DNA of 64,000 nucleotides from Psammoneis japonica (lineage: Eukaryota), in assembly GCA_008632985.1 (NCBI GenBank), contig QPGO01000107.1:1-64000 (forward strand), written 5' to 3'. The translations under genes and the position numbers were made by a program. The notes under the pieces are model-generated. The model was not told the origin of the DNA and ran no database searches. It worked only from the letters and a program-made list of their open reading frames with translations. How positions within the stretch are numbered: the first letter of the stretch is position 1; the number at the start of each line of letters is the position of its first letter. This document shows positions 3,403 through 41,540 of this stretch, one piece after another.

Positions 3403-3413
3403 CATCTTCTTTT

Positions 3414-5633: not shown

Positions 5634-5718
5634 TCAAACAACATGATGGATTCATGCCATTTGGATTTTTTCGTTTCCGAGCATTTTTCGCAACGGATGG
5701 AATTGCATTGCCTGTTTT

Positions 5719-5783
5719 GGTGTCACAAATGCGTGCGATCGTACGGTTTTGTTGGTCTGTCCATTGAACGATTTTCGATTTCG
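5719..5783 (+). repeat. 65-bp element, copy 1 (inverted copy at 8658-8722)
   Basis: GGTGTCACAAATGCGTGCGATCGTACGGTTTTGTTGGTC...GATTTTCGATTTCG matches the reverse complement of 8658-8722 at 63/65 positions. Confidence 0.9.
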
Positions 5784-5953
5784 CTGGCTTGCGTGGTCGA
5801 ACTTCAACTTGCACAGATGTCCTGTAGACTTGTGCGTGAAAACATGCCAAAATCAAATTTTCAAATTCGTGAGGGAAAAGAAGTGAAACCACTCTTTCTT
5901 CCCCTGCACCATCTCGTTGCTGCTCCTGCGGATTACGACAACAACGACGACAA

Positions 5954-7349: not shown

Positions 7350-8474
7350 TCAATGCAAATCACAACCATCATCATCACCACCAGATTCATCATCTTCAAA
7401 GATGGTGGCAGTGCCACTGCCGTCAGATGCTGGAGGGAGCACCCTTTTCTCCTGTAGCGACTTGCGACGGGAACGTTGCTCATCCAGGCAGAGGTTGGGG
7501 GTCCAATTCTTGGCATCCGACACGTAGCTGAGTTTGCAGTTCTGTGATTTTTCAAGGCTCTCAACAATCAAATCTGGAGCAAGATCATCCAAGCTTTGAA
7601 CTGAACCATTGTTTTTCAATGCCGCGACTGCCGGCCCAAACTGCGCAACCAAAGCATCGCGATCACGAGAGCGGAGACTAACTTTTGGGATGGAACGTTT
7701 GTTCAAGCGCGGCCTTCCAGACTTTTCAGGGGTGTGCACAGTTGAGCATGTCATCATGCACGGTTCACACCTGCCGTCAATCAATGATTCATTCTCGACA
7801 GTGACTTGAGAACAATCCATGGCGACCTTCAGGTGATGACAAGCCAAAGCCTCTGGGTGTCGTGCAGCTTGATCTCGAAGCTGCGCGTTGGATGTGGGCA
7901 TGTCAGAATGTTCAGAACGCTTTGCTGTTCCATGAAGCTTCTCATGCGATCTGGATTCTTCAACTTTCCTCTTTCGAAGGTCATCCGAGTCGAACATCCC
8001 AATGCACTTCGGAGCGGCTGGATCGCATTGACAGTTCAAGTCGGCAGATTTTGACGGAGTTACAAACTGCTTCCTCAACCTTTCCCAAGCTTCCTTTTGC
8101 TCTTCTTTCGACAGATTCAACCACCAATTTACTGCTGTCATTCGATGGCACAAGTCTGAGCTTGCCGGACCAAACAAAATGAGGCAAATCGGAAAAGCAC
8201 AATGCGTTTGTTGATCTTTCCGCTGCCTTCCGCTCTTTGGCACTTTGAAGCTCTCTTGCAAAAATTTCTGATTCTTCCACTCAGCAGCACTCCTGTCCTT
8301 TAGAGCGTCCGGCACATCAGCCTCCGTGTAAAATGTCTTGTGGTGTCGGGCGACCTTCAAATGTTTCGGTTCTGCCATGCTTGGCGGCAGCGCCACATTG
8401 CGCTCAAGCGGCTCTGGGTCTTCTTCCCCAAATGGCTCCCTTTCTTCTTCACACCCACTCACATTGATGACCAT
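7350..8474 (-). pseudogene. TpA-converted ORF of unknown function
   Basis: 374 codons with protein-like composition and an acidic tail; Tyr nearly absent. Confidence 0.35.
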
Positions 8475-8584
8475 TGCAATGAAAGAAGAGCTGCAATGCC
8501 AAGGACAGGCAGGAAAACTTCAGCGTGAGGCAGGAGCAGGGGTCGACAATGCCATGGAGCATTTCTCTGAGTGATTTGTTGGCA

Positions 8585-10010
8585 TCAATTTCTAGCATGC
8601 ATTGCGCAGAAGTGTGCGCAGACGCCACCACTTTCGCGGGAAAAAAAGTGCCAGAGCCGAAATCGAAAATCATTCAATGGACGGACCAACAAAACCGTAC
8701 GATCGCACGCATTTGTGACACCAGTTTCTTTCTTCTTGCACTGAGTGGCAAAGTCACGAAGCCTGGCTTTCCACATGGCCTCAAAATGACATCTTGCAGC
8801 CTTGCTTTTGCCGGAATTGTCAGCGGCAGAAACCACACGATCAATTTTCACACATCTTAAAAGAGTCTCATCGACATGTGTTGCGCGCATTTGTTCTCGC
8901 TCGACATCTAGCATCGACAGTCGCACAGGCTTTTCCCAAGAATTTTTGTGTTGGTGGAACAACAACTTTACAAATTCAGGGAAGGACACAGGGCATTCAT
9001 CTTTGGTCCTCTCACAGTGACCAAGAGCCAGGAAATTCTCCAAAAAGTTGGTGCGCAAGTCGATGTCTCTCGCCACATTTGCCGAACAGGGAGCACAGCC
9101 AATGGTCGCAATCACCATTCCTTTCAGGTGCGTGCGGCAGAATCTTGTCATGAAGAATCAAAAAACCAATGTGAAGGTGTTGCGCGCAACGCAAAACCTT
9201 CCCTTCAAAACTTCTCAGCTCAGTGTGCTTGACAAGTGGCTCTCCCTTTGGGTCGCACAATCCGGGATCATGGAGAAGCTTGCACAACATGGAAATCTTT
9301 GCCATCATGTTGGTTGTGGTGTCTGTTGATTTTGCCTTGTTGCCAATGACTTTCATGTCCTCCACTTTGGGAGCACGGCGGCACTCCAACGCATGAGGAT
9401 GTTTGGCGCCTTGGCTGGAACAACTCCATCCTTTTGCGGAAAGAAAGTGCAGCAAGCTCTTGCACCCAAGTTCCTTTGCAACAATGCGGTTCACAGCCAT
9501 CAGCTCTACAAAAAAATGAGGTCTGCCCTTTGACTTTTGCCACACATGGGCAAGCGCGATCCAATTCGGAGAGGGATCACAAGTGGAATCGTGGTGGAAC
9601 TGAACCTTGGATTTCACCGTCTTGATTGTCGCTTTGACACGGCTCCGCTCGTTGCCATCGATCACTCCAAAACCATTGGCAAAGAGAGATTCAAATGCGG
9701 CCTCCTCGAGGCAGGAATCATTGTTGTCTTGTAACAGAGAGGCAACCGACAAGTCATGCGGCGCCATGGTTGCTGTTCCAACACCAAAAAATCTGGTTTC
9801 TGCAGAAACACACCAGAGTGGTGCATGGGAGAAGTTGCATGCGCGCCTGGCAGGATTTGGAGTTTTAAACACAAAAACCTGCCAGACGCGCGTGCAACTT
9901 CTCCCAGGGAAATCCCACGTGAGATTGTGCCGGGAAAGGGCAGTGCAGAGTGTGGAATTGATGGAAGAAAATGTTGTGTGAAACAGCATCAGGAGAAAGC
10001 GTGCATGCAC
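8585..10010 (-). pseudogene. TpA-converted ORF(s) of unknown function, probably frameshifted
   Basis: Overlapping ORFs 9012..10010 and 8585..9151; Tyr-poor; no domain recognised. Confidence 0.3.
8658..8722 (-). repeat. 65-bp element, copy 2 (inverted relative to 5719-5783)
   Basis: Reverse complement matches 5719-5783 except for two CpG/TpG differences. Confidence 0.9.
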
Positions 10011-10849
10011 TGGAAAACAACATGGACTTCTACATGCGCGTCAAGGCACGTGAAGAACACATGGGTGCCTTCAAGTGACGCACACGAACAATCACAAAGA
10101 AACACTCGGAAATGGAGACAGCACAGAGAGAAGTCAGAAACATGGATCCAAAACAAAGTGACACACAACAGAAAAAAAAAACAACTGCAACAAGAGACGA
10201 TGAAGGCGACGGCGACGGGATCGATGAAAAAGAAGGATTCGGATGGAAAGATGCCGGAGACGGTGAAAACAGGCGGTGCCAAGACAAAGAAGGAAGAGAA
10301 AAATGGGGCGGGCAAAATGAAGAAAGAGAAAAAGAAGCCGACAACACGATGTCAAGAGGGGAGCAGCGATGCGATTCTGCATTTCGAGGGACCTCTTCCT
10401 CTCGATGATGTTCACCCAAATGCAAGAAATGCAGTGTGGCTTTTTTGGAATGGTGACGAGGAAACATCCAACGTGGCAGCAGCACATTTGAAATTCTTGC
10501 AAGAGAGCGGACAAGACATGTGGAATGAAGAGGACGATGCAGACGACTGGGCAAATTGGAGCACAGTTGTTGATTAAATGATTGGTGCACACTTTGCATG
10601 ATGAAAATTTCATTGCATGCAATTGCAATGTTTGGCTTGTCATTAAAGATCGTTGGTTGTTGTGAAAAAGGCAGAGCACAAAAATTAAAAAACATCTGTG
10701 TTCAAACATGAAGAATGGCAGGAGATTGATGATTGACCAAATGACAAAAACCGTTGTGTGTGGATGAGCAAATTTTATAATGTGGCAATGTAATTTTGTC
10801 ATGTGTGCAGACATTGCGACATCGTGCACTCTGATGTCAGTTTCTGCCT

Positions 10850-11290
10850 TGTCACAAAGTTGCCAATCTCCATTCTTGTCCAGCGGGCACTTGCTGGAGA
10901 AGACCTGAGACCAGTGTGACTTGGGAGGAACATCAAGATTTGAGAGATCTGCAAAAAGAAGACAATCAAACAAGTCCTGCAGCTGAAGAAAAAAGTCACA
11001 CACAGGGATTCCAGGAGACAGCTCTTGTGGTTTGTCATTTTCAAATTGGCAAGCAATGGACAAAGACTCAAGGGGTCTTGCTTTGGCACCACCCAGAGTG
11101 ACAATGCTGGGAAACATTGACCCAGCTTTGAAATGAAAGTGTGAGAAGAGGGGTTTGTTGGTTGGCAACCCACCACATGAGAGCTCCTCTTGCACAGCTC
11201 TGAGAAATTCATTGATCGCACTGATTGGGACACCCTGGGAGCAACAGCACAGATTCAATGTGCAGACCACAGAGATGGTTTTGCTGTTGT
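10850..11290 (-). pseudogene. Possible Plavaka/CMC-like transposase fragment
   Basis: GVPISAINEFL...PVCDFFLQLQDLFD..LFADLSNL..P...W...NGDW loosely resembles the N-terminal part of such transposases. Weak, by eye only. Confidence 0.25.
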
Positions 11291-13459
11291 GAACTTCAGG
11301 GATGATGAGATCCTCATCAGTGGAAAGGGGCTTGACTCAATCCAGTGCAGCAAAAGAACCTGGGTCAACAACAGTGGCAACCCCCTTGGCAACAAAAGGA
11401 GACACACCATCATCAAATGATTTGGAAACAAATTCTTCATTGTCCAAGTGCTGGCATTCTGAAACATCATTGGTGCCTGGCCAAACGGCAGTGCCATGAG
11501 AAGGATGTGACTCTTGCACTTGCATGACAGCACAGTTGGATCTCAATGCCCAGGGATTGTGCTGCAAGTGAACTTGTGGAGCGGATGAAGTGTCAGTCAG
11601 AGTGAGACAAACCAACCCCTGTTGCAACCATTTCAATGGGAGGGGGGACAAAGGTGGAAGAAGAGGCAATGGCATCACTGGGTTCTTGGGATTCTCCCAT
11701 TGGCAGCTCTTTGCTGTGAGCATCTGTCAATTTGTTTCCTGAAACACCGCAGCTGTGTTGAGAAAAGGAGAGTTTGCAGGGCAAATGAGTTCTGAGGGGA
11801 TGTTGAAGACCAGTTGGAAGAAAACATTTGCCACACATGGGACAATCATTTCCTGCAGCAAAGGAAGGCACCATTGTCCATGTCACAAACAGAGGGAGGT
11901 GGAGATGCATGAGAAGCAAAAATCAACAATGCAAGCCATGCGGTGAAAGCAACACATGGCAGGTGACAAGATTGTTCTGGGCAAGTCAACTTGCGAGTCA
12001 AAGTGCAAGATCATGCAATGAATTGATGCACAAGAGTGGCTGTCTTCACGCCAGTCTGCTGGGCTTGCATCAAGCAAAATGACAATTTAAGATGAATCCA
12101 ACTGACCACAATGACGGATGTTTTGTCATGCTGGCGCACATCTCAGACTTGTGTGCAACCAGATGTGGACCCATTTCTTGAGCACCCAATTTTCTGTGTG
12201 GTGCTGGGTCTGTCTCTGGCACCCCCAGCCCAAGTGGCTGCAGTGGTTTCCATTGGCCCACGCATCCTGTTGACAATGGAGCCAAACTTCCTGCCAAAAT
12301 TCATTTCAGCACCCTCCTTTTTGTTTCTTTTGACAGTTTTTGGTGGCTTGAGATTGCCAAATTTGATGACACAGCTCATCTGCATTTTCCTGCTGCTGCC
12401 TTTCTTGTTTTTGCACCTGGTTTTGATGCCAGCTGCTGGCTTTCCTCTTCATTTTTTTTTAAAGTTGCTCCTCTTCCTGGGTTTTGCTGGTCGTTTTCTT
12501 GCTCAGTTCTTTGCCTCTCTTGCACTCTTGCTTTCCATGGCTGTGTGGATTTGGCAGTGCAATCATCCTGGCTGCTGTTCTCATGCTTGTCCTTTTTTCT
12601 TGTGGGATCAACTTGCAGCAGAATGGGTTTCATGTTGACATCTTTGGCATCACATTGGTGTCTTTGGCATGTCAGCACCCTTGACAGAGGAGTTGTCAAC
12701 AAAGAATTTGTTGACAAGAGCTTGACTTGAAATCATGTTTTTTTGTTTGCATTTTTTGGGAAGTTGGTTTCATCTTGTGTGGCAGCCTTCTTGCAAGGTG
12801 AGCTGGTGCTGCCATCAGAGGTCACAATGGTGAAAACCTTGCAGTTTTCCCACACAGGAATGAACTGGATTGTCATGGTCAAACCATGCCCAAAAGACAG
12901 GTTCAAGAAGGCAAGGCACTCTGTGCTTCGCGGCACTTGCCCCATTGCCAGTTCCATCCTGGATGACCCCTGAAACAAGCTTCTGTTGCACTTGACTGAG
13001 CACTGGAGGTGTGGGTCAGATGGCACCGGCCCAGCTGGCAAAGGAGTGACAGCACTTTAAAGTTGGATTTTTTTGTGTTGGAAAAGCCTCAGCCAAGCAG
13101 CAAAAGCCCAGTGGCATGACAGCTCAGCAGAACTTCCACAGTGCTTTGACATTTCTCACATTTGTGCCAAAACTTGGCTTCATGGTGGGCCTGCCTTCCT
13201 CAACTCAACCCTCCTCTCTGCTCACATGCTGGCTTGGTTCAACAGCATGGTGGAGCAGTCACCTTCATGTGTGCTTGAGATCTTCTTGGATGAGTTGAAG
13301 AGTGGGGGCATGAGCACTTGGTCAAAGCTCAAGCACTGGCAAGTGACAGCATGCAAAAGACCCTTTGGTCACTCACCTCCCACAAACCACAGCTGCTTCT
13401 GTGTCAGCGAGTTCTTGGGTGAGGACAAGATGATGCACTCCAGCCATGAGTGGGGCTGT

Positions 13460-13730
13460 GTGTGACATTGAGAGCCCACTGATTCTGTGCACAAGCTCCA
13501 CAGCAAAACAACCAAGCAATGAATGCGCGGGCAGTTGCCAACAGAAAAAGAGGCAATTTTGTGATCATGTCTCCCAACCCACACACTCAAAGTTTGTCAT
13601 TTCCTTCCACCAATGTTGAAGAACACACCTGGCCCAGTTTTGTTCTCACAAATGTGGAAAACAGAAAGCCTTTTTTGTCTTTGCAAAGCAGGGAGCACGA
13701 AACATTTTTGTGGAAAATCACATGTGAAAA
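13460..13730 (-). repeat. Decayed homologue of the segment at about 53050-53330
   Basis: Shared GCCAACAGAAAAAGAGGCAATTTTG (25 bp identical), TTGAAGAACACACC and ACAGAAAGCCTTT in the same order; shared peptide KIASFSVG. Confidence 0.75.
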
Positions 13731-14448
13731 TCATTCGCAACATGTGACGTGATCCAAAAAACTCTTTGTGCCACAGTGCAGTGGCACAAGGTTCTGCCTG
13801 GAGCTGGAATGCATCACAGATGGCACCTGCCATGAAGGGCAGTTGTGCAGTTGGACAAGAGTGCTTGGGGGAAATCTGCTCTTTCAAGACATCCATGGTT
13901 TCTTGGTTTGGCAAAAACTGCACACCCAAGCAAGTGGAGAAGACCAGCATTGTGCACCAAGCCACTCATTTGCAAGCAAAGGTGAGGTGATTCAAAGAAG
14001 TTGGCAGCACCTCCAGGCTGCAAAGAGAGTTGCTGTGTGAGAACAAAGAGTGCTCTCTGAGCAGAAAATGAAAACACAAAATCAGCCATTTTTCGTGCAT
14101 GTGAGAAAGTGACAGCACAACACATGTGAGGGCCTTGCTTGACATTGAAAAAGCTGGAGAGTGCAAATGCACAGTGATGTTTTGTTTGTCACCTTGATGG
14201 TGTGTGCCTCCTTTTTGTTGGTGATGTTCAGAGCACATGTCGTGCCACAAAGCTCCAGCTTGTCCAGGGGCCCTTCGCTGGATTTGGAGCCATGGGGTGT
14301 GGAGAGAGCAGCATTTCTTGCCAGCTGCAGCACCCCCTTGTTGCTCAGCTGTGCACACCAAAGTGCAGCATGGCTGTGAGTTGTGTGTGCTGTGTCGGGT
14401 GCTGGCTTTGCTGTTGCAGCTGTGCCACATTAAAAAAAGACGTCGATG

Positions 14449-14530
14449 GACGGCTGATGCTCAAACGCTGGAGCTTGCAAGCAGTGGTGTCGGGGACGGC
14501 TGACACTCAAACGCTGGAGCTTGCAAGCAG
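14449..14530. repeat. Short tandem duplication (about 46-bp period)
   Basis: GACGGCTGA(TG/CA)CTCAAACGCTGGAGCTTGCAAGCAG twice; the copies differ as TG versus CA at one site. Confidence 0.8.
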
Positions 14531-15230
14531 CGCCACACACGCAAGCAGCGCCACACACACAAGCAACAAGCACTGTGCTTGCAGCAGCAGAGAGCAACCA
14601 AGTTGTGCAGAGTCATGGCATCTGAGCAGCGCACTCAACGTGGCAGCCCCTTGTTCTTTTTTGCATCACCACTGCCAGCAACAAGAGCTTCCAAGTCTGG
14701 CAGGGAGGGGCCCATGATGATGCATTGTTTCTTGCGGTTTTGGTCACGTCGAGATGCAAGAAGTCAGAACGCGAAATTTGCCCATTGTCAAGAATGCTCA
14801 ACGCCACGCGAAGGGAACCAAGCCGATCGATCCGAAAAACTGAACATTGTTGCGTTCGGCATGCAGGATTGTCACTCCTGTTGTAAACTTTAACGGTTCT
14901 GTTATTTTTACAAGCATTAATGTCTGTATATTGTTGCCTTCGGTATGCAGGATTGTCACTCCACACCACATCACATGCCATGACACACGACTCAGAAACG
15001 CGCAGTATCGTAGAGCCCTCGTACCATACTGTAGTACGAGTATTTGCTGTAATACAGTAGTCCTCGTCGGTCGTCGTCGATGTTTTCTGCACAGAACACA
15101 AAAATACATTGTTGGGAAACGTGGATCTACAAGAAGGAACAAGTCGCAGAAAAAGATGAACACCGGTCTTCTTTTCCGACAACGCTTAAGGAGAAAAAGA
15201 CGTGGCTGCGTATCAACGGCGGCCTCCACC

Positions 15231-16114: not shown

Positions 16115-17039
16115 TCTCTAGCTGGACACTATCACACCATACAAAGTTGGAGGAGAGGAGTCGCTCACAACAAAGTCACCACAATTTCAATGAGTAACAG
16201 CAAATTATTGTTTCACTATTTCTAGTCGTCGACGCTTCTTGTAGTAAATCGACAATGGCCACCACCACGACGGCAATCAAACTGCTCAATAGATAATGGT
16301 TGTCCAGACTTTCCAACTTTGTCGAGCTTCGGATCGGTGGGAACAGAAAAGATCACAATTCAGTGTCACTGTGGCACGCAAGAGTTTCGATGATGATTCT
16401 CCTGTATAATTCTTTCGTTTCTGAATGGCACCAATCTCGTAACATTCTTTTACATACTCTTCTATCTAAGACAGAAATGCCGGAATGAGGTCGATATCCG
16501 ACGAACTCTACGAATCAAGGACATGGTATCAGACATCGTCATACCTTTCTGTGATGGATGTTGCTATGATTGAAAAGGAAGGAAAACATGAGAGTCATTG
16601 AAAGGTTTATGACCATATCTTGCTTCCACCATCATTTGGGAAGCTTGTTTCATGTTAAAAACGTACCTTATGAGATAAAAGGCAACACATGTCACGGATC
16701 ACGATTGGCCTCGTTGACAATGCACGAGTACACTTCCATGGCAAAGACCCGTGGATATAAATCCAAGAGTGGAATTCGCATGATTTAACAGGTCGGACGT
16801 TGTTGCATCGTAGACGGGTATTCGCTTGTGAGCAGAGGTACGGGAAGACTCAAAGAAATTGGCAACACCCGACTACAGCATCAGCACCGCCCGTTTTGGT
16901 AAAGATCGCCATGGTGAAGAGAAGAAGAGGGGCCTGCATGATGATTGAGAGTAGTAAGACGTAAGACGATGCTTGATTGATCCGTCAACTTTAACCCTTC
17001 AACCACCGGACTTGAGCAAATCTCCACGGGTGGAGATTT

Positions 17040-19763
17040 AAAAGACTGGCCACATAGAAAGGTGCTAACGGAGCTCGAAATAGCTCGTATGGTCGATTTT
17101 GAGGTATGGATACCGATGGAAAGCTCTTGATCTCAGCTCTTCAGCGATGTATGTGTCAATGGCTGGCAATGCTTCCTTGACATTTTATTAGCCATAAACT
17201 AAATTAACGGCTTGAATTGTTTACTATGAGTGTTTTGACCGTTGAGGAATTGCGCGAAATAACATACCAAGAAAGTCACGTACACAAGTTGTATAAAAGC
17301 ATATAATTTTTAAGATTATATAAGTCTATACAAATTATTAAGCACTTTACATAAGGTTCGAATTTGAAATTCTCTTGGTGGAGGCAACAAGAGCAAAAGC
17401 AAAAGCGTCACAAAAAAATGGCGCGGCCGAAACTAACCAAAGGCGTCAAGGACGATGAGGCGGCAGAAAAGTTCTACGATTGGCTTTCCGACCCTAACGA
17501 GTCTCCCATTTTCCATGAATGTTGTGTCCAGGTGACTGCAAAGAAACCTGCGAAATGTCAGTGTCTGCAGAAGCTAAGAGCAACGTTGGAGAACAACGAC
17601 ACCTCCATCGTGAAAATGTTGAGCAACTGCCTCGTGCACTTTGAAAGACTGTGGTGCACAGAAACACATGCTGCTTTTACATCCTGGATTAAATGTTCTA
17701 CTTTCATTCAGAAGCGTGCGTGCAAGGGTGATTGTCGCTGCTTTGTTTTGCCGCTGTTGAAAACTGACGACAATGACGAGGAGGAGGCGGAGGAGGGGAC
17801 GCCACCGGACGATCATCTGGTCTGCTACAGTGCCCTCCTTGCATTGCCAGGCAAAGGGAGAAAGTTCTGGAGAACCGCCAAGTTGAGTGCAAAGAGCAGC
17901 GTCTTTCCGAAACATGGTCTCAAAGGGAAGACTGGGCAGAACGCGAACAAGACGCTTGCACCCGAAATGCACACAGCCCTTCACGCACATTTTGATGACA
18001 CAAAGGAACTTTCTGAGCCACGTGCAACGAGACTGGTTAGAGAAGAGACAGGTGTCGGCTTGAGAGATGAAGACATGTGCGACTTGCCTCCCACCGTGAA
18101 AAAGCGTGGATTGCACAAACGGCACGGACAAGAAAATGGTTGGACCCTCAAATCAAACCACAAAGGCAAGTTTCTTAAGGTGGAACCAATCGAAGGAGAA
18201 GACCAGCAACCAATGTGCTCCTGGGCACAATTTTGCAAGTTCTGGAAAAAGAGCTGTCCTGAAATTGTCGTGAGAAGGCCCACTCGTGACATCTGCGATG
18301 AATGCCACAAGTTCGCAAACAGCTTCAGGATGAAAGCGATGAAAGAAAAGACGGGGGGTGAGAGCGACGACGACGAGGATGAGGAGGAGGAGAGCGATGA
18401 TGATGAAGAAGATGGAGCAGATGCAGAGGTGAGAATGAAAGAGATTGAAGAACAGGAAAATGAAATGTCACACGCCGCAAAGCACGTCGAGTGGGCTCGA
18501 AAGCAACGGACACTCGTGCAACAGCACATTTCAGAAGCGATGGAACACGCAAAAGCCGACAAGGCACACGGCAAGCAAACTTGCGCAAGGATTGGTGGCC
18601 ATTGTCAAAATGGTGGGCTTCCACATTTTGGGGCGGATCAGCCAGGGGAGATGCACTGCTTCTCTCCTTTGACGATCAATGTGATTGGGGTTGCCGATCC
18701 TGCGGGGAAAAAAGTTGTGACGGTGACGGAAGATGAGTTCAAGGATTTTTTGCATGCATGCGTCTGCCATGAGGGCACTGGCCAAAAGGGAGGTGACAAT
18801 GTTGCTTCCCTTGTGATGAAGCACTTGCATGATGGTGGATTGTTGGACATCAGCAAGGGTCCAGGCGGAAAGCTCGCATTGATTTTTGACAACTGCATCG
18901 GGCAAAACAAAAACAACATGGCATTGAGACTTGCTTCTCACCTGGTGGAACAAGGACATTTCAAAGAAGTGAGCATTGTTTTTTTGATAAAAGGGCACAC
19001 CAAGAATGCCTGTGACAGGCTCTTCAACAGCCTCAAGCAAACTCACCGTGACAAGAACATCGGCACGTTCCGCAAACTCTTGACAGCCTTGGACACCTCC
19101 GAATGCGTTCAGGTCGTTGAAGTGAAGGAGGAGGATTTTGTGGGGCATGGAGCGCATTTTGACCAACATTGCAAGAAGCACAGTGCAGTTGCGAAGCACC
19201 ACTGCTTTGAAGTGACAGATTCTTCGGAACCTGCGGTAGTGACAATGAAAGCAGCGGACGGTGAGCCAGAAGTTAGCGAGGATCTCAAGAAGAGGAAGAC
19301 AGAATCGAGCGAGCAACGAAAACAGAACTTGCAAATGTCACAACCACTTGCCTTGACAGCTCCAGGTGTCAAGGATGTCAAGAAGGTCGAGCTTTGTGCC
19401 AAGTGTCAGCCGCTTCTTGACAAGGCAGACCAAGATGAGATGTGCCCTCATCCTGGAGACGACGTCCTCAATCGCGTTGCGAAAAGCAAGAGAGAGAAGC
19501 GGAAGAACAAGCAGGCGGAGAGCACTGAGCAGATGGCGCGAAACAAGAAAAAGAAAAACCGCCAAAGCCAGCGCAGTTCTTTCGGAGAGGGATGCAAATA
19601 AAAATCAATGGCAGTCCTTGTGTGCATGTGAATTTTATGCAATGTTTTATGTTGACACTTTAATTGTTTGACATCGCTCAAAAATCTTGTAAGTGCCATT
19701 TTCTCGAAATAAATTTTGAGAGCTCGAGAGCGCGCGTTAGCACCTTTTTATGTGGCCAGTCTC
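17040..19763 (+). mobile_element. Sola-like DNA transposon with 27-bp TIRs
   Basis: AGACTGGCCACATAGAAAGGTGCTAAC (17043) matches the reverse complement of GTTAGCACCTTTTTATGTGGCCAGTCT (ending 19762) at 26/27. Flanked by ATTT on both sides; left junction imprecise by about 2 nt. Confidence 0.8.
17418..19601 (+). pseudogene. DDD transposase (Sola-like), frame open but TpA-converted
   Basis: Motifs PTRDICDEC, IFDNCIGQNKNN, FLIKGHTKNACDRLF. Only 2 Tyr in the 745-aa ORF. Confidence 0.8.
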
Positions 19764-20179
19764 ATTTGCTCCCTTGTGTCACAAATGCAGTAAATGAAGC
19801 AATTTCAGATGCGTGGATGATGTTTAATTCGCGCGATTTTGTTTTTTGGAACGCGCACTCGCCGAAAATCTCATCCATGAACAGATGTGGAGAGGAACTA
19901 AATCTCAACCTTTGACAATGCAGGTTGTCATGAATTGCTGTCACAAATGGACCAACAATGCCACACCCTTGGAGCAAATCTCCACCTTGGAGCAAATCTC
20001 CACCGGTGGAGATTTGCTCCCAACAAGCAAATGCACGTGGTGTGCTTTGCGCAGATTCTGCGCGACATGACATTTTCGTGCTGTGTTCATTGCATTGTCA
20101 CAAAATTGCATGACACGTCACACAGCAGAGCAAATCTCCACCCATGGAGATTTGCTCCCCTGGTGGTTGAAGGGTTGAG

Positions 20180-21935
20180 CTTTGCTCGGAATCAGTTCCT
20201 GACTTCTCAGCAAGGCTGTTGAACAACAAAAGAGCAGATTTTCTTTCTCTCTCCACTGAAGCTTTGGACTCCCACATGCATGTCGCAAATGCCACGAAGG
20301 CGCGGATGCAATCATCTGAGAAATGGAAATGCATTCGCAATTCTGGACAACTGAAAGTCGTTCCCATTCGTCCCCAACCTGATCCTGTCAACTCTAAAGC
20401 TTGGTGTCGTGCACCAAGACACATTTAGACGACATGCTCGTGACCATTTTGTCCTTCCTCTGCCCCTTTTTTTGCCAGTTTTTGCGTCTCATTACGACCA
20501 TGTTTGGACACCATTCCAAGATGGACACCGACAAAGACCAAGAGGAGCCCAACAACATGCACCCTTCCACATGGTTTGGCAAATGGAAGAAAGCTGAGCA
20601 CGATTGTGACAATCTTTCGGGCATTCGTCAGCAAAGCACCGGCAACTCCACCATGATCACAAATCACTGTGAGATGGCAGCGCAATCCAAAACATGCGCA
20701 CCAACCCTGAAGAGCAAGCACTTTCAACACAAGCGGGTTCTCTCTGCAGAAGCTGACTCCGTTTTGCAATTCACCGGAAGCCAACGTGTGGCAGGTGAGG
20801 ATGAAAGCCATGCACAAGTTTGACAAAAACACCATGTCTGCCGTCAAACTTTTGCTTGTTGTGGCAATTTTTCTTGCAGGTTGGGCACAACAGAATCAAG
20901 GCAGGTTGAAAGAAGGAGCAACAAAGGTCCGACATGTGCTGTCGACATTTCATTTGAGCTGGTGCTTTTTCCTGGGGATTCTGCGAATGAGAGCAAGAAA
21001 AACCCAGCGCACATGATGAGCCCAACAACGTGCTCAATTGTGGAGTGCCTCCGTCCTGTGAAACAAACTCCCAAGGCCATTGCAGGGATCGCGGTGTAAA
21101 CCCTTTCAGTTGGCAAAACCACAGCATGCTGCAGTGCTTGGCACAAAATTGCGCACGCACTTCACCGTGTTAAAAAATGGCAACCACGGCGAAAGCACGA
21201 AGGAAAGAGACAATCTGTTGTCTGCCCTGTTTAACGCTGGGATGTGTCTTGACTGTGCAAACTGATTGAATGGACATGCTTGACAATGCACAATCATTTT
21301 CCACCAAAGGAACACTTTGTCAGTTGTTCAGAGTCTCACAAAGCATCGCTGGTTAATTGCCAGTGATTTGCGCAGCAATTTGGCGAGCGACTCACCGCAC
21401 TTTGCCGTTGTGAAACAAGGATTGTCCAAAATTTTCGATTTGACATCTCCAGCAGCAAAAGTTTTGAGCTGCACAACCTTTTCATGTGTCAAGCAACAGT
21501 TGTGTGACATCAAACCGCTTGCATTGCTCATGTGGACGTTCTCCACCCCTCAAACTTTTCACCGCACTTTCATCACGTAACTTTGATTTGCAACACGGTG
21601 AAGTGTTGACACAGAATTCTGCGCAGTTTGTGTGCAGCATGTTGTGGTGGCACATCTGCCTCCTGCAGGGCGTCAGACAGAAGGTCGCTCGAAAATGAGA
21701 CCACCCAAAATCACAATGCTGACTTCTGCTGAGAGTCATGAACCAACCAAAATTAAACGCATCAAAACGAAATGCTCTTTCTTGGAATGCATCGTGTCCA
21801 ACATGGCCCAGAAACACACCAATGACCAAGAATGGAAGGGTTTGACTTTTGTCATCATTTGCTTCTGCTGCACCTTCTTTGACTGGCCTTGTTGTTGACA
21901 GCACAGTCAAGCAATCACGCCATGATGATGCGACC
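20180..21935 (-). pseudogene. Mutated duplicate of the nucleotide-sugar transporter gene at 25675-26778
   Basis: Colinear with about 25445-26732. Carries a frameshift, a deletion at GGA microhomology near 21088, an insertion, and systematic TA-to-TG/CA changes. Confidence 0.93.
21098..21648. mobile_element. About 550-bp MITE-like insertion within the transporter pseudogene
   Basis: Interrupts the alignment to the intact gene. Begins AAACCCTT; ACCACAGCATGCTGCA near the left end is an inverted match to TGCAGCATGTTGTGGT at the right end. Confidence 0.55.
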
Positions 21936-23835
21936 GACCACAACAAAAATGGGCAACATGCCACGGCACATTCATGCCCCATTTGTGATGGCTTTTGTCC
22001 ATCAATCACAACACTGTTCAATGTGTTGACAATGTTGATTGAACGGGATCTGTGGCACAAAATGCAAGATGAAATGTGGTTGCACATGTGCAGAATGCCA
22101 GTGCAATTGAGTCATCAGTCGTTGGTTTTTCGTCGTGCAGCCACAGATGCAAGCCACAAGGTGCACAGCAAAGGCTGGGAAAAGCAGAAGCACGCACAGC
22201 TGACAACAACAATGTGGTGGATTGAATGATCTCCCTCATGTTCTTCCAATTTGCACATCTCATGTGCAGAATGAAGGGGGTCATTTGGATCACTCTTTTG
22301 TCATGCATTCAGAAAGGCAAGCCATGAGGTGTCTGGTGTGAAGGATGAGGCAAAAGCAGAATTGCACATGGTTGACAAAAACATGGCAGATTGATTGACA
22401 ATGTTCGCTCTTCTCTTTGACCCATCTCATGTGCAGAATTCCTTTTTGTGTCATGTGGTCACAAATGATGCAAACCACAATGGCTCTAGAGCAAAGCCAA
22501 GGCAAAAACAGAGCCGCACATGAGCAATGTCAACATTTGTGACCCAATGGCAAAGTTCATTCTTCCCTTGCTCTGCCACAAGGGGGTGCTTTGTGTTGAT
22601 TTGTCGATGCATCCGTCATGGTTGGCGGCGGCAGAGCATGGCTTCATTTCCATTCATTCTGGTTGAATGTGGAAAAAGGCACACCCACCCTCACAAAACA
22701 AGACAGGAATTGCCACGCTGCACTCATTTTTTGTTCCTTCCCCTGACCCCTTTCAGTCGTTCCTTCCTGCCAAATTATCCTCATTTCCCGGGCATTCCCA
22801 AAAGGGCAAGGCAATTGCCCCTTGCCCTTGCCATTTTGGGGAATCCCCAAACGGGCAAAACCAAGCCAAGCACTGTGCCTGTTCCACGCAAACCTTGGCA
22901 CACAACGCACAAACCTGGGCTTCCATGGTTCCTCAAATGCCTCACTGCAGCTGGCCCACAACACAGCACACACCTCAGCTGTGACCAAACCAACATCCTT
23001 GCATCCATTGCCAGCACCTCTTCCCTTCCTGACCTGTCCCCTGCCAGTGCCACTGCCCTGTGCCAAGCCCCACCCTTCCTCAATCACCCCACTGACAACC
23101 CAGCTCTCTCTCCTGAAATCACCACTGGCCACAAATTTTTTGGCCAATGAGTTGGCAGCACCAACTTTGCTTGCACCTTTTTGGAACAAAAGGCCACCAC
23201 TGTCTGCATCAACCTCGGTGCCATCTCTCACTCCACCTCCACAACATCCAAGCCAAGAGCTTCCTGTGCCACACCTGCTGGTGTGCCACATCTCTTTCTT
23301 CCTCCTTCCTGCATGGCCCAAGAAAAACTGCACTGCCTGCACCAATGCCCAACTCTCTCCATCTGGCCTTTTTCCCACGCCACAGCTTCCTGGACCACCA
23401 TCACCCTCCACCAGATCCGGCCTCAGCGCCCAACATCAAGCCACTGCTCCCAACCAATGATGCGAGTGGGGCCTTCAAAGCCTCAGCCTCACCATCACCA
23501 AATCTCTCACTGACCAACTCCTGTGCCACTCCACCAAACTTCACACCCAACTTGCTGATCCCACTTAAAACCCTCACGTTCCCTGCTGCCCACATGACGC
23601 CGTGCCGTGCCGGCCGTTTCGCCCCATCACGCCGTCTGTGCACCACACCGCACCACTGGCAGGTGACGTTGCACTCGAACTCCTCATGAGCGACACGCGG
23701 TACCGGCGGTACCGTAGATTAGTCATGTTTTCCACCTTGTTCCACCCATCAACGATCAACGAAAACCCCTCCCACTTTCATTGTCCATCGTAATCCAGCC
23801 AAGATGTCAAGTGAGCGAAAGATCCAGTTGAAGAA

Positions 23836-24786
23836 ATGCGGAGGGTGATGAGAAAGGAGTTGACTGACTCCGAGGCTTCATGCTTGTTCTCAACGTTCAG
23901 TTCACAAGCTCTGCTGATTGCAGATGGACGTGCCAAGGATCGTGATATTGCGACTCTCTACATGAAAATCCAGCGAATGGTCAAAACGGCAACCAAGACC
24001 AAACTTGTGTCTGCTTACAGCTTCGACGGCTTGGTGCCTATGTCCTTTGGACAAGGAAGCACTGTTCTGCAATATGTGATAAACGGTTCCGAGCTTAACT
24101 GCGCGAAAATCGGCGATGTTGCGACCATCAGCAAAGAGGTTAGAGTAGCGAGACTGGTGCATGAAAACCAGCAGTGTCCTTCCGTCATGCATGTGATTGA
24201 TACCGTTGAAATCAGCGACTCAAGGCTGGCAATGATTGCTCCATTCTATCCATTGCCCCTCTCGCACATGGACATGGACGTACAGGAAAATACAGTTGTT
24301 AACATGGCCTTATGTGCATTGGCAACAATAAAGGCTTTCTCCAACAAAAATCTCTGCCATGGGGATATCAAGCCATCCAACATGATGTTTCAGGCCGGTA
24401 GTAGGACGATCGTCACGATTGACTTTGGGTCCACGGTGCAGTATGGAGAACCACTCTTGGCCACATCTCCAATGTTTGCACTGGATTGCCCAACCGAGGG
24501 ATCGCTTCACTATGATCTTGCATGTCTCGCAACATCGATCATATTCCTGCTGGGGAACAGCTTGGATGAATTTAGTTCTCGAGCGCAAGCCAGAGAGTGG
24601 CTGAAAACTCGCCAAGGCACTCACTACACAATCGCATCGCTTTGCTTGAATCCTGACGTAGAATCCGTGGATTCCATATGGCAAAGATGTAATCAGGTGG
24701 TGAATGTCATGCACGCAGATTCGGATTGGATTGTTGACTGTGATGCAGTGTGGCCGACTACTGATGTAAATTCATTAATCCACTAG
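23836..24786 (+). CDS. Protein kinase-like protein
   Basis: CAKIG (VAIK-like), HGDIKPSN catalytic loop, DFG. Normal Tyr/TpA content. True start uncertain. Confidence 0.75.
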   Translation: MRRVMRKELTDSEASCLFSTFSSQALLIADGRAKDRDIATLYMKIQRMVKTATKTKLVSAYSFDGLVPMSFGQGSTVLQYVINGSELNCAKIGDVATISKEVRVARLVHENQQCPSVMHVIDTVEISDSRLAMIAPFYPLPLSHMDMDVQENTVVNMALCALATIKAFSNKNLCHGDIKPSNMMFQAGSRTIVTIDFGSTVQYGEPLLATSPMFALDCPTEGSLHYDLACLATSIIFLLGNSLDEFSSRAQAREWLKTRQGTHYTIASLCLNPDVESVDSIWQRCNQVVNVMHADSDWIVDCDAVWPTTDVNSLIH

Positions 24787-25674
24787 AGAGTCGTCTTGGC
24801 AGAAAAATATTCGGCATATTTGGGACTGAGTATTCATTGATTTAAGCATTTCTGATTCAAAAACAACAAGTACCCAACGTCACCTCGAACAACAATGACG
24901 ATGCTACAAAGATATGTGACGAAGTCAGCAGGTGAATTTGATGCAGAGACAAGAAATTTCCCGAGAAGAAATTTGCTGTTCCATAGTGGATTCATTCAAG
25001 TTGTGTTGCCACTCTCTAGATTAAATACCGAAGTGGTTGGAGGTTTTGTAAAACTTGTGCAAGAATCGGCGCATCGACCGCTGGATAATAAGTTAGGGCC
25101 CTAGTGCTCTCAACAATTGTCTGTCAAAGTATGTTGTGTGCGACAGAACTTGGCTTAAATTCTTGCGCTGCTTTACTTTCATAGAAAATGTAGAGATGAG
25201 CTGTCGCATAACGTCTTCTTGATGCTGCAAGGTAAGTAATAAACTTTCGAGAGGACCCAATCCTCCCTGTTCGATAGTACAAGTACGGTACCGCTGTTAA
25301 CCTCTATTTTATTATGGAAGAATGCAAAAAATTCCGAGAACACCAGGCTCGACAAATTCTTATCGAAGTCGAAGCAGCTCGTGGAACGAAAGGAAGCTCT
25401 CTCTGCATTGGAATCTCAAATTACCAGAGCAAACATGTACGTCAGCGTTGCTCGGAATCAGTTCCACCTCGCAACATGGCGGGTGAGTAACAAAGGAAGA
25501 GCGTTTCTCTCTCTCTCTCTCTCTGAAGGTTTGGGCTCCCAGGTATGTCGCAAACACCACGAAGGCGCGGAGGTAGTCAATTGAGAACTGGAAATGTATT
25601 CGTAAGTCCGCTCCCATCCATCCCCAACCTGATCCCACTAACTCTAAAGCTTGATATCGTGCACAAATATACTT

Positions 25675-26778
25675 TTAGACGACATGCTCGTGACCATTTT
25701 GTCCCTCCTCTGCTCCATTTTTCGACAGTTGCGTCTTACGACTACCATGTTTGGATACTATTCCAAGATAGACACCAATAAAGACCAAGAGGAGCCCAAC
25801 AACATGCATCCTTCTACATGGTTTGGCAAATAGAAGAAAGCTAAGCACGATTGTGACAATCTTTCGGGCATTCGTCAGCAAAACACCGGCAACACCACCA
25901 TGATCACGAATCACTGTGAGATAGCAGCGCAAACCAAAATATGCGCATCCACCCTGAAGAGCGAGCACTTTCAACACAAGCGGGTTCTCTCTGCAGAAGC
26001 TAACTCCGTCTTGCAATTCACCGGAAGCCAACGTATAGCAGGTGAGGATGAAAGCCATGCACAAGTTTGACAAAAACACCATGTCTACCGTCCGAACTTT
26101 TGCTTGTTGTAGCAATTTTTCTTGCAGGTTGGGTACAACAGAATCGAGGCAGGTTGAAAGAAGGAGCAACAAAGGTCCGATATATGCTGTCGACATTTCA
26201 TTTGAGCTGGTGCTTTTTCCTAGGGATTCTGCGATTGAGAGTAAGAAAAGCCCAGCGCACATGATGAGCCCGGCAACGTACTCAATCGCGGAGTGCCTCC
26301 GCCCTGTGAAACAAACTCCCAAGGCCATTGTAGGGACAAGTTTGCATGACTTAAATGCGACTTTTACTGGATAAGAAGTGTACCGGATCGCGGTATTGCC
26401 AGAACCGTGCGATGCTGCGACACAACTTCCGACAATCAGCAATAGAATACCGGTACGTCTGCCTCCTGGAGGGCGTCGGGCAGAAGGTCGCTCGAAAATG
26501 AGACCACCCAAAATCATAATGCTGACTTCTGCTAGAGTCATGAACCAACCAAAGTCAAACCCATCAAAACGAAATACTCTTTCTTGGAACGCGTCGTGCC
26601 CAACATAGCCCAGAAACATACCGATGACCGAGAAAAGAAGGGTTTGACTTTTATCATTGTTTGCTTCTACACCTTCTTTGACTGGACTCTGTATTGACAG
26701 TGTAGACAAGCAATCGCGCCACAATGATGCGATTTTTAAGCGGAGGAGCACCCACCACTGTACTGCCGGACTCCCCAT
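25675..26778 (-). CDS. Nucleotide-sugar/PAPS transporter (UAA, SLC35B family)
   Basis: Multi-pass hydrophobic 367-aa ORF with YPVKVAFKSCKLVPTM, NLQEKL and TNARKIVTIVLSFLLF motifs. Confidence 0.88.
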   Translation of the reverse strand: MGSPAVQWWVLLRLKIASLWRDCLSTLSIQSPVKEGVEANNDKSQTLLFSVIGMFLGYVGHDAFQERVFRFDGFDFGWFMTLAEVSIMILGGLIFERPSARRPPGGRRTGILLLIVGSCVAASHGSGNTAIRYTSYPVKVAFKSCKLVPTMALGVCFTGRRHSAIEYVAGLIMCAGLFLLSIAESLGKSTSSNEMSTAYIGPLLLLLSTCLDSVVPNLQEKLLQQAKVRTVDMVFLSNLCMAFILTCYTLASGELQDGVSFCRENPLVLKVLALQGGCAYFGLRCYLTVIRDHGGVAGVLLTNARKIVTIVLSFLLFAKPCRRMHVVGLLLVFIGVYLGIVSKHGSRKTQLSKNGAEEGQNGHEHVV

Positions 26779-27458
26779 CGTTGTATTTCACTTCTCGTTG
26801 TTCTCACCTCGCGATCTTTGTGAACCAGTGGGCTCTGAATTAGTGCTTTTCGAATCGTCGCCTTCTTGGCTGTCGATTTGTTTCGCAAAAAAAAACTGAA
26901 AGCGTTACGTCCGATGCCCGCAACAATGAGAACCAAAACAACAAAATGATATCAAGAATGCGGAAGTGTCATTGGCACACAGAAAAGAAGTGACACTTTT
27001 ACTTCACCGCGCCGTTGAGTTTTGGGGGACGTCTTCGGAAGTGAGACTGTCGAAGAAAGTTACGTAGATTTTGTACTAAAACAGTCTGTCATCAGTGCGA
27101 TTGGTATTTGGACCTCTGACAGATCCTACGTGTTTTTTTTGCGTACAAATTGTACTGGAAAACCCAAACGCACTGGCGATCAGACCCTTCGACGATCTCA
27201 CTTCCAAAGACGCCCCCAGTTTCCGTTTTCGTTTTTTTTTGAAAAAAAGATCGTCTGTCATTCGCGCGCTAGCGATCCTATCGTTGTTGAAGTTTCGACA
27301 GTACATTTTGTACGTAGATTTCTACGTATCGTTTGACGTCATCGGCGGGAAGTTCTGTTCCTTCCTCCGCCTCATCCCTCATCATTCATCCATCGTCCCC
27401 TCCGCGTGTCACCTCACAAAAGGCAACCAGGACGGAAAGAACTAAACCAGAAGTGACA

Positions 27459-39326: not shown

Positions 39327-41540
39327 TCAAGGCTGACTCCGCTTCTGCCTTGGCAATGCGACCCTCCACAAACCTTTCAAATTCCGCGCATGCCCAAGCA
39401 ACCCCCCATTGGCCAGTGATGAGTCGGAGATAAGAGTGTCACCATCGACAAACCTCACTACCATGTCCAAATTTACGTAGTCTTGGCAATCGTTTACGCC
39501 TTTTTCCAAAGTTTCGTGGTACTCTTTCCTCTCTCGTTTGACGCGATCATCCACACTCTCTTTGAGCTCATTCGTCCAAGCTTCACCGGAGAGTTCCTTT
39601 CCAGTTAAGTCCTTCACGATTTCAAGGAAAGGCCGAGAATTACCGCATTCCCAATAAGCTTTGGTTAGAGTTGGACCAACCTCTGGGTTATCTACAATGT
39701 AGCCGTACTTTTTCTTAAAGAACTCGCGAGTCTGGTGAACGCTCATTTCGTCAAGCTACAAAGACACAAGGGGCGAACAGAGTACCGTAAGTAAATAAAG
39801 AGCCACAGGCGCAAGCGAATACAACAATCATGCAACACATCACGCACCCTGTATCCCTGGTAGTAACAACTGGCTTCATCACTAACAATGTGAGGAACGC
39901 TTAGAAGAGGTCGAGGACAAAAGCCACCTTGAATAGATATTTCTATCTCGTCCGCGAGTTTCTGAATCGCATCTGCGGTAAGCTCGCTCTCTGGAAGCTC
40001 GTAGAGGGCTTTTTCAAAGTAAGAGACAGAAAGCATCGCACGGAGTTGGAACACCTGGAATGGGTGGGTGGCAAGGATTTCCTCCTCGATGATCTCGAAC
40101 GGAAGAGGCTTTCCATTTAAATCACGGGCATACTTTGCCTCCAGGCTGCGTCGCTTACAAGGGAATCAAGAAACATACTCTGATTCTCAGCATATGCCAC
40201 AGATGTTGGTGCCCTCTCTTGACTGAAAAGAGGTGACGGCTGCTTGATGTTTGCAAAGTGGCTTGCATGGCCTGCCTCATGCATGAGCGTTGTCAACTCA
40301 GTTAGGCCACTTCCAACAGCTGAGGGGTCAGCAAGTGACGTAAAATTGGCTACAGACGGCTGCCAAATTCCACCGGGCTTCACCCATGCTGGCGTAGGCC
40401 AATGACAAAACCCATTGCTATACTTCTTGGGCCGATCAAGCAGGTCTAGATTCATTGTTGCACCAGAGTATGATATGCCAAGGGCAGCGTAGGAACGAAT
40501 GTATCGCTCCACGGACTTTGAAAACGGGAAATAAGGATCCTGCAAACAAGCGGGCGTTGTGAGACTAAGGTGAGACGCAGAGAACTTGCATTCTCCGTTC
40601 TCCGTGTACATTTCATTGTATTGCTTACCAACTTCTTAATGACCGACCCAGCCATCATAAAAGACGTATTCCATGGTTCTAATGCCTCTTTCCCGAAGCG
40701 CCGCTCGAGTTCTTTCCTTCCTTCTTCCATCAATGGGCGAGTGCTCTTTTCCAAATCATCAAGAATCTCAAAGAGTCTGGCTTTTCCAAAGCCCTCCGCA
40801 TTGGTGACCTTGTAGTCATAGTAGTCTACGAAACCCAACTTCTTTGCCATTTTGTTTCGCAGCTTGACAATGTCGACGAATCCGTTAGAACAAACAAAAG
40901 GTCCGATAGACCGAAGACCTTCGTAAGCAGCTTTGCGTGTATTTTCGTCAGCATTTGTGCGCATGAGATTCCGAAGCCCGACGGATGACAAGGCTTGGAA
41001 GGTACCATCTTGAGGCGAAGTGTAGCCTAGTTTCATCTCATTCCTGGCCTGTTCGAGGTCGCTTTCGATTTTACTCGTTTCTTCCCTGATGGTCTTGGCT
41101 TCGGTGGATTCAGACATATCATTGCACTTGCACGTGCGTATGATAACATCAAGAGTCTTGGTCAAATCTTCAATGCCGTCAAGACCCTTTAAGGAAGCTT
41201 GGTGCGACTCGGCCTCCTTCAACATTTTCGGATCCGACAAGAGATCTTCCATTTCCTTCTTTGTCTGCGAGAGAAGTTCAGACGAGAACTGCTTGTCATC
41301 GGTATCCGAGAGCGCCATCCTCGTACCCCAAAACTGCTCCTCAAACGCCAAGTGCTTTGCAGCGTAATCATCGTTGAAACGATCCACAAATGCCTGAGCT
41401 AAAGCAACTACACTGCCTTCAGAGTCTGTTGCCGACATGATAGAGACGATGTTCGTTGTGACAACAGGTACGACTCCAATGGCAACTGCGGCAAAACAGA
41501 GATAACACCGGCTATCCAGCAGTTCCGGCAATTTTTTCAT
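39327..41540 (-). CDS. M3 family metallopeptidase (oligoendopeptidase-like), with introns
   Basis: RNKMAKKLGF.DYY, DLLDRPKKYSNGFC, HEAGH zinc motif, AENQSMF and YYQGY across ORFs 40452..41540, 40117..40611, 39743..40054 and 39327..39746. Ends approximate. Confidence 0.85.

Follow-up and report, generated by a model that had tools for sequence, protein, structure and literature searches.

The DNA analyzed here, hereafter the window, is a 64-kb stretch of the diatom Psammoneis japonica (contig QPGO01000107.1, positions 1 to 64,000). It contains an intact transporter gene (copy B) and a partial duplicate of that gene (copy A). An earlier note on this DNA had claimed that every TpA dinucleotide of a host transporter gene was converted to TG or CA in its duplicate, and had placed the duplicated interval at 25751-26336 and about 20504-21088. 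The features concerned are the following.

25678..26787, minus strand: copy B, an intact open reading frame (ORF) of 370 codons from stop to stop, first Met at codon 4, for a UAA/SLC35B3-like nucleotide-sugar or 3'-phosphoadenosine 5'-phosphosulfate (PAPS) transporter
25440..26731, no strand: duplicated span of copy B, from 3' of the stop codon to near the N-terminus (local alignment blocks)
20174..21088, minus strand: 3' block of copy A, a frameshifted pseudogene fragment that pairs with B 25440-26336
21648..21932, minus strand: 5' block of copy A, which pairs with B 26451-26731 and has an in-frame TGA derived from CGA
21089..21647, no strand: non-alignable, TpA-poor stretch of 559 nt in copy A, standing in place of 114 nt of B (26337-26450)

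Copy B matched the Pfam family UAA (PF08449) at 1.2e-46 over profile positions 3-309 of 311. Its homologues (n = 111, the best 55-57% identical; those named belong to the diatoms Skeletonema and Stephanodiscus) carried source labels of SLC35B3-type PAPS transporters (PAPS transporter B3), and the description of copy B as a host transporter gene was therefore right. The two intervals of the note proved homologous but too short, since the duplication covers A 20174-21932 and B 25440-26731 in two blocks. No extension of the homology was found to the left of the transposon (A up to 16993 compared with B up to 25450) or to the right of A 21933. The stretch between the two blocks, 21089-21647, is probably an inserted repeat. 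Copy A is a dead partial duplicate of the SLC35B3-like transporter gene and adjoins a piggyBac-like transposon in a repeat-rich block.

All 21 TpA sites of B 25751-26336 are altered in copy A, 12 to TG and 9 to CA, a recount that agreed exactly with the note, and A 20504-21088 contains no TpA. The three sites that had been cited as examples were found at B 26034/26036, 26181/26183 and 26221. Over both blocks (1,174 aligned bases, 88.8% identity) copy B carries 43 TpA, which read CA at 21 sites, TG at 18 and GA at 2 in copy A and are kept at 2; four TpA remain in aligned copy A. A converted site is no longer TpA, so that each site takes one hit, and none of the 43 reads CG. Transitions to G/C were found at 39 of the 88 A/T bases within TpA and at 16 of the 525 outside it (Fisher p = 1.5e-24), that is, 39 of the 55 A/T>G/C transitions of the pair are located in TpA. 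Both strands were hit (18 TG and 21 CA), and His and Cys are about equally common in the mutated ORFs. The TG and CA products are interleaved along copy A, sometimes 2 nt apart, and the non-coding flanks of copy A were converted as well. At the 39 converted sites the flanking bases had no strong influence on which strand was hit: the base 3' of the hit A (+1) was C at 14 sites, T at 12, G at 10 and A at 3, compared with T at 13, C at 11, G at 8 and A at 7 for the unhit A. Transversions between the copies numbered 36 in the 1,174 bases.

The statement that only some CpG sites had decayed was also borne out, 17 of 114 CpG bases having changed compared with 24 of 447 other G/C bases (p = 0.002). 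CpG decay, of the type driven by 5-methylcytosine (5mC), is a second, weaker process on the same DNA. Its company with TpA loss would suit a polymerase-eta-like error-prone synthesis at WA motifs, set off when deaminated 5mC is repaired in methylated repeats. Synthesis of this kind operates in phase 2 of antibody hypermutation, and the A>G errors of polymerase eta at WA fall preferentially on TA. ApA, however, is not affected by the process, since only 3 of 111 AA became AG compared with 39 of 43 TA converted, and AA/TT stands at 1.2-1.3 of expectation in the TpA-poor segments of the window. The near-complete conversion, with few transversions at TpA (2 of 43), is likewise unlike a polymerase error spectrum, and we regard this explanation as highly unlikely.

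The direction of change was determined by aligning copy B with 100 diatom-type homologues. Within the ORF lie 31 of the 39 converted sites, 7 of them synonymous and 24 residue-changing, and 22 of the 24 residue-changing columns, each with at least 50 aligned outgroups, were scored. The B residue was commoner in 17 of these columns and the A residue in 5. At the 10 conserved columns (one residue in at least 62 outgroups) copy B agreed with the outgroups in every case and the A residue occurred in 0-8 outgroups. Tyr of B and the outgroups is His in copy A at columns 61, 170, 251, 289 and 340 and Cys at column 283; Leu is Pro at columns 226 and 319, Thr is Ala at column 153 and Met is Val at column 91. 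Ancestral Cys or His at the converted sites was not found among the 100 homologues, and the direction proposed in the note, from TpA in the intact ORF to TG or CA, is upheld. The paired design thus provides an outgroup-supported direction that is unobtainable from composition statistics alone.

The reversed direction would have a C>T change at CpA, like that of repeat-induced point mutation (RIP), create the TpA of copy B, while copy A kept the original CA/TG. A difference of TA against CA/TG is the pattern that RIP leaves, and no more than 5 kb separates the two copies. Against this stand the outgroup residues at the 10 conserved columns, the intact 370-codon ORF of copy B without RIP-type stops, and the ancestor that would be needed, with no TpA in 585 nt. 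In addition, TAA and TAG are depleted, not gained, in the affected DNA, and in two transposon genes of the window His or Cys stands at positions that are Tyr in the homologues. We give this reversal practically no chance.

RIP of ascomycete fungi nevertheless resembles the conversion of TpA in copy A in being a hypermutation of dinucleotides that depends on context, inactivates repeats where they lie and results in blocks of distinct composition. RIP changes CpA to TpA, gaining TpA and stops, whereas here TpA is lost and TAA/TAG are erased. RIP also mutates both duplicates, whereas copy B keeps 43 TpA and shows at most one candidate change (the single site with TA in A and CA in B) compared with 39 in A. 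Copy B has the same sequence as copy A and yet was left untouched, so that homology by itself does not trigger the process, in contrast to RIP. Location matters, copy A adjoining the piggyBac-like element and lying among repeats.

The mobile elements of the window and their structures are listed below.

16995..20174, plus strand: piggyBac-like DNA transposon with CCC...GGG termini (CCCTTC.../...GAAGGG), inverted repeats and an ORF at 17419-19598
16991-16994 (left, TTAA) and 20175..20178 (right, TTGA), no strand: target-site duplication of the piggyBac-like element
42863..49980, minus strand: long terminal repeat (LTR) retrotransposon with LTRs at 42863-43139 and 49703-49980 and a Copia reverse transcriptase (RT) ORF at 43090-44634
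58890..63938, plus strand: Helitron-like open frame of 1,683 codons with 0.3% Tyr, matching Pfam Helitron_like_N, PIF1 and DUF6570

The element at 16995-20174 was assigned by a TTAA target-site duplication and CCC...GGG termini, which we take to be hallmarks of piggyBac; a piggyBac-type DDE domain was sought in its ORF, and the sole Pfam match was DUF7869 at 6e-20. Three copies of a 31-nt palindromic motif (of the GGAGCAAATCTCCAC...GTGGAGATTTGCTCC type) lie at the ends of the transposon (19989-20019, 20128-20158 and 17014-17039), with what looks like an additional, duplicated piece of the terminus at the right end.

The coding sequences of these elements differ from those of the host in composition: the transposon ORFs contain 0.2-0.6% Tyr, 4.3-5.4% His and 3.3-5.6% Cys, compared with 1.6-3.8% Tyr in host ORFs. 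The four homologues of the DUF7869 ORF have 3.3-4.2% Tyr, and at the 18 columns with Tyr in at least two of the four the window has His at 7, Cys at 6, Phe at 2, Asp, Met and Leu at 1 each, and Tyr at none. Similarly, the 150 best representatives of the Copia RT homologues have a median of 3.9% Tyr, and at 12 conserved-Tyr columns the window has Cys at 7, His at 3, Tyr at 1 and Phe at 1. Four of these 150 (P0284, P0322, P0325 and P0340) contain 0-0.5% Tyr, with His or Cys at most covered conserved-Tyr columns. They were sourced from ENA and JGI metagenome assemblies, indicating that similarly mutated elements occur in other public data.

The LTRs (277 and 278 nt) are flanked by a 5-bp target-site duplication, TCTTG, at 42858-42862 and 49981-49985. 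They differ by one indel and nine substitutions, of which eight lie at inferred TpA, one at CpG and none elsewhere. Six of the substitutions are CA or TG in the left LTR and TA in the right, and TpA numbers 4 in the left and 10 in the right. Two adjacent differences (ACAC in one LTR, ATGC in the other) can be explained by an ancestral ATAC mutated on one strand in the first and on the opposite strand in the second. Because both LTRs are copied from one template, their differences arose after integration. The share of substitutions at TpA (8 of 9, with none at other non-CpG sites) also bears on rate and implies a large TpA excess. In the piggyBac-like element the left target-site copy is TTAA and the right one TTGA, showing that one TpA>TpG change took place in the right copy after insertion. 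On the basis of the LTR pair and this duplication, the change occurs in DNA and after integration.

Logan contigs of two runs, X1 and X2, were also compared with the window. Both runs represent one sample, possibly the assembly's own source, and are independent as a method, not as a sample. Contigs of X1 (depth 51) and X2 (depth 61.9) contain an empty-site joint, 16993>20178, in which 3,184 nt are skipped exactly at the transposon ends. The insertion-free form is therefore present as DNA in that sample, and from the window letters flanking the joint we infer that the unfilled site carries a single TTAA. The X2 empty-site contig differed from the window at 13 of 276 nt in copy A (20178-20453), compared with 7 of about 1,850 nt across the insertion site. 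Another X2 contig covers copy B at 25674-26354 with 27 differences and 3 gaps, and past 26354 it is unlike the window and matches neither B nor A; it may come from another genomic site with a third copy of this segment.

These structures bear on the view that copy A is an edited retrocopy, in which ADAR-like A-to-I hyperediting of double-stranded RNA was fixed by reverse transcription. Copy A does lack 114 nt present in copy B, and the 5' U preference of ADAR would be in keeping with the signature, a point argued too in the Discussion of Mettrop et al. (bioRxiv 10.64898/2026.01.13.699255). On the other hand, a single cDNA strand would give one type of product, and TG and CA are interleaved 18 to 21. 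The LTRs, which derive from one cDNA, differ and so changed after integration; a target-site duplication and DNA transposons (piggyBac-like and Helitron) were affected too; and the non-coding flanks of copy A were converted. An edited retrocopy is therefore very improbable.

The extent of TpA loss across the window was delimited by a two-state hidden Markov model (HMM) on P(A|T), and bins of 1 kb and 250 nt were also used. The 1-kb windows fell into two classes of DNA. The model returned five TpA-poor segments with 39,772 nt in all, or 39.8 of the 64 kb (62% of the window), none of them assigned to a strand; the ratios given with them are observed/expected.

2629..14882: TpA 0.07; CpG 0.11-0.13 in the 11-14 kb part
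17702..23687: segment with copy A, 29 TpA in 5,986 nt, TpA 0.08; CpG 0.58
41515..49247: body and 3' LTR of the LTR retrotransposon, TpA 0.14
49962..61007: TpA 0.13
61243..63995: segment within the Helitron ORF, TpA 0.11

In the normal segments TpA stands at 0.52-0.83 of expectation. The host-gene segment 23701-41513 (0.58) contains a kinase-like gene, the transporter, ALAD, spermidine synthase, PhyH, a methyltransferase, a helicase and an M3/M2-type peptidase, and the TpA-poor segments contain the DUF7869 transposon ORF (piggyBac-like), the Copia RT and Helitron remains. The boundaries are sharp at the scales of both the 250-nt bins and the HMM.

An earlier hand segmentation had marked 39,215 nt as TpA-poor and is the source of the following observed/expected ratios: CA 1.56, TG 1.52 and CpG 0.69 in poor DNA, with CpG at 1.01 in normal DNA. 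In the HMM segments poor DNA has a GC content of 0.515 and normal DNA one of 0.459. About 0.04 of this 0.056 increase would follow from the drop of 0.039 in TpA frequency. TAA and TAG together occur 4.1 times per kb per strand in poor DNA and 18.8 times in normal DNA, whereas TGA is at about 20 in both. Since TAA and TAG are erased, long false ORFs result. Foreign DNA with a native TpA-poor composition was considered as a source of the pattern and was rejected. Four intervals (11001-14000, 22001-23000, 42001-43000 and 50001-51000) are depleted in CpG too (observed/expected 0.11-0.43) and consist largely of CA/TG steps; these sub-blocks, depleted in both CpG and TpA, are probably the oldest and most methylated repeats.

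In some long-read assemblies the consensus contains systematic A>G-type errors at modified motifs, and heavily modified heterochromatic DNA could in principle have been mis-called at TpA by a long-read base-caller. Contigs of X1, which are built from k-mers, match the TpA-free window at 11947-13051 (4 differences), 13068-14173 (5) and 23281-23690 (4), and this argues against a base-calling artefact. The frameshifts, insertion, CpG decay and 36 transversions of copy A mark it as truly diverged, and Tyr-less Copia RT recurs in the unrelated ENA and JGI metagenome assemblies. We attach very little credence to an artefact.

Among the 40 best-supported of 357 differences between the window and the contigs of X1 and X2, 29 have TG or CA in the window and TA in the contig, indicating that other copies or alleles retain TpA lost from the window copy. 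Summed contig word depth was about 50-65 both for copy A (54.5 at 20374-21040) and for host-gene bins, and mostly 100-12,000 elsewhere in the poor segments, which suggests that copy A is unique and the rest of the poor segments multi-copy. In the bins of 21089-21647, the stretch between the blocks of copy A, the depth was about 530-570 compared with about 50-65 in host-gene bins, a difference that is suggestive only. A single N (assembly gap) stands at 27712, just upstream of the transporter gene, beside bins of high contig word depth (26377-27700).

The TpA that survive were counted by tetramer in poor and in normal DNA (hand segmentation). ATAT was found 0 times in poor and 99 times in normal DNA, ATAC/GTAT 0 and 180 times, ATAG/CTAT 7 and 115 times, TTAA 33 and 53 times, and CTAG 24 and 36 times, CTAG and TTAA being the most resistant contexts. 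Taken together with strand choice at the 39 converted sites, these counts tentatively point to 5'-A-T-A*-Y as the favoured target, with 3' A and C at -2 disfavoured.

These changes, whose signature, direction, confinement to segments and post-integration timing are read directly from the DNA, are likely to reflect a DNA-level process that turns TpA into TpG or CpA in repeat-rich blocks after integration and spares copy B and the host genes. In such blocks each TpA would undergo one A:T>G:C transition on either strand, and the process would have run near to completion, far faster than background substitution. Its agent is probably a chromatin-targeted, TpA-specific A:T>G:C mutator. In genes it causes missense changes and creates no stops, Tyr becoming His or Cys, ATA-Ile becoming Met or Thr, and CTA/TTA-Leu becoming Pro or Ser. 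We infer that the process serves as a genome defence against silenced mobile DNA.

The chances are about even that the underlying reaction is an enzymatic adenine-to-inosine deamination at 5'-TA-3' in DNA. In the tRNA target of ADAT2/TadA-like enzymes A34 is always preceded by U33, and for this reason an ADAT2/TadA-like deaminase is an attractive candidate. The main rival is a modified-base route to the same phenomenon, for which free adenine would not be the substrate. Either G would pair wrongly with a thymine modified at TpA (5-hydroxymethyluracil or base-J-like), or deamination would act on N6-methyladenine at TpA. The palindromic site conceals which base is hit, and CpG decay in the same segments shows that base modification takes place there. 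5-Hydroxymethyluracil is enriched at TpA in dinoflagellates. No point in the sequence speaks against this chemistry; on the other hand, a conversion of about 90% is not known for any such mutator, and to our knowledge eukaryotic N6-methyladenine occurs at ApT in active genes and not at TpA in silent DNA. We consider the modified-base route rather improbable.

Several points weigh against the main reading, a TpA-converting process in repeat-rich blocks with a putative deaminase as its enzyme. Because TpA is palindromic, A>G and T>C on opposite strands are indistinguishable, and a process of thymine modification would fit the sequence equally well. Five of the 22 outgroup columns (40, 71, 189, 234 and 337), all poorly conserved, favour the copy-A residue, the outgroup counts for the B and A residues being 4 and 6, 2 and 23, 0 and 1, 8 and 11, and 11 and 29, respectively. 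The evidence for breadth comes from one 64-kb window and unnamed metagenome proteins. Targeting is moreover uneven, the 5' ends of two elements being spared (16995-17352 and 49254-49980). The 5' terminal region of the piggyBac-like element (16995-17352) holds 33 TpA compared with 13 in its 2.2-kb ORF, and in the LTR element the 5' LTR and a leader of about 450 nt (49254-49980) have normal TpA whereas the body is almost TpA-free. Sparing of 5' ends would fit co-transcriptional or small-RNA-guided targeting, or protection by a nucleosome-free promoter. Within the piggyBac-like ORF, TpA becomes scarce gradually along the initial 300-400 nt.

In the literature searched, the signature was otherwise matched by one report only, a 2026 preprint on mutation accumulation in Bigelowiella natans. 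According to that preprint, 231 of 302 new mutations fell in integrated giant-virus and virophage regions, all GC-biased mutations in those regions were TpA>TpG or CpA, and the rate was about 6e-7 per site per generation, some 1000 times the background (Mettrop et al., bioRxiv 10.64898/2026.01.13.699255). The same source describes 124 TpA-depleted clusters, with reverse-transcriptase and DDE domains enriched among depleted coding sequences, and its authors propose an ADAT2-like DNA adenine deaminase. The diatom case shares with it an identical signature (TpA>TpG/CpA only, on both strands), confinement to foreign or mobile DNA in an otherwise normal genome, a rate that would be far above background, and clusters that are depleted in TpA, enriched in CpA/TpG and include transposon domains among the depleted coding sequences. 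Copies A and B provide a clean internal control for such a TpA-erasing hypermutation, of a very recently described kind, in mobile DNA of a diatom and in the DNA next to it.

The two cases also differ, the host being a chlorarachniophyte (Rhizaria) in B. natans and a diatom (stramenopile) here. The viral inserts there are mildly depleted (Rho TpA 0.45), whereas the transposons and host pseudogene here reach 0.07-0.14 over 62% of the window; and the rate was measured directly in B. natans, whereas here it is deduced from paired sequences. The sparing of 5' ends and the hierarchy of flanking bases seen here are not described in the main-text Results/Discussion of the preprint, and a term search of it gave no mention of diatoms (bioRxiv 10.64898/2026.01.13.699255). 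TpA loss as a signature in diatoms or other stramenopiles was absent from the full-text literature searched, in which subscription journals are mostly uncovered.

Likeness to AID/APOBEC and ADAR of animals lies in an editing-type innate defence that acts on a short sequence context. AID/APOBEC enzymes deaminate cytosine, whereas the change here is A:T>G:C in DNA with an obligatory 5' T. ADAR edits RNA and prefers a 3' G.

A wider reading would combine these elements into a chromatin-guided DNA adenine-deaminase defence of diatoms, a mirror image of RIP that erases every TpA in silenced mobile DNA, spreads from the transposon into adjacent unique DNA (here a host-gene duplicate), perhaps on one allele only, spares promoters and extends across the lineages of stramenopiles, alveolates and Rhizaria (SAR). 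Action on a single allele may be reflected in the empty-site contig, which has 13 differences in 276 nt of copy A and 7 across about 1,850 nt beyond the insertion site. As a whole this reading is possible but doubtful. If it were true, promoter sparing would imply co-transcriptional or small-RNA targeting, and presence in both a stramenopile and a rhizarian would point to an ancient immune system shared across SAR, and to a TA-specific DNA adenine editor of natural origin.

Repeat-directed point mutation has hitherto been treated as essentially fungal, and A:T>G:C change at TpA would be a second chemistry for it. Near-saturation in the transposons of a diatom, a member of a group of major ocean primary producers, suggests that the system is widespread in SAR lineages, and it would explain GC-enriched, Tyr-less, stop-poor 'ORFs' that mislead gene prediction in genomes of this kind. 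The search for the enzyme has clean natural material in the LTR pairs, the target-site duplications and the host-gene pair with known ancestor, and a natural DNA adenine editor with TA specificity would interest genome engineers.

As a baseline, 70 one-kb windows were taken from 16 diatom-type metagenome loci found through the neighbouring DEAD-box helicase; these loci are short and gene-dense. They contained no TpA-poor stretch, with 1-kb values of 0.30-0.98, and they are uninformative on the repeats of relatives. The helicase gene itself, at 36881-38965, shares 68% identity with a transcript of taxon 33640, presumably Asterionellopsis, and 56-61% with proteins of Epithemia, Cylindrotheca, Nitzschia and Pseudo-nitzschia, all pennate diatoms, which marks the window as DNA of a diatom and not of Bigelowiella.

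Very long open frames (1,412, 394 and 383 codons) were noted at 44638-48873 on the minus strand and in overlapping frames on both strands. Pfam searches returned nothing for the 1,412-codon frame or for 9 of the 11 other frames tried alongside it, and the matches of the remaining two (K-cyclin_vir_C at 0.1 and DUF668 at 0.26) fell far short of the cut-offs. Such long frames without Pfam domains are owed to the loss of TAA and TAG and were treated as false ORFs. Finally, an inverted-repeat pair of 66 nt (5718-5783 and 8658-8723), 97% complementary, 2.9 kb apart and with two mismatches of the CpG/TpG type, lies within a TpA-poor segment and probably marks the ends of another DNA transposon.

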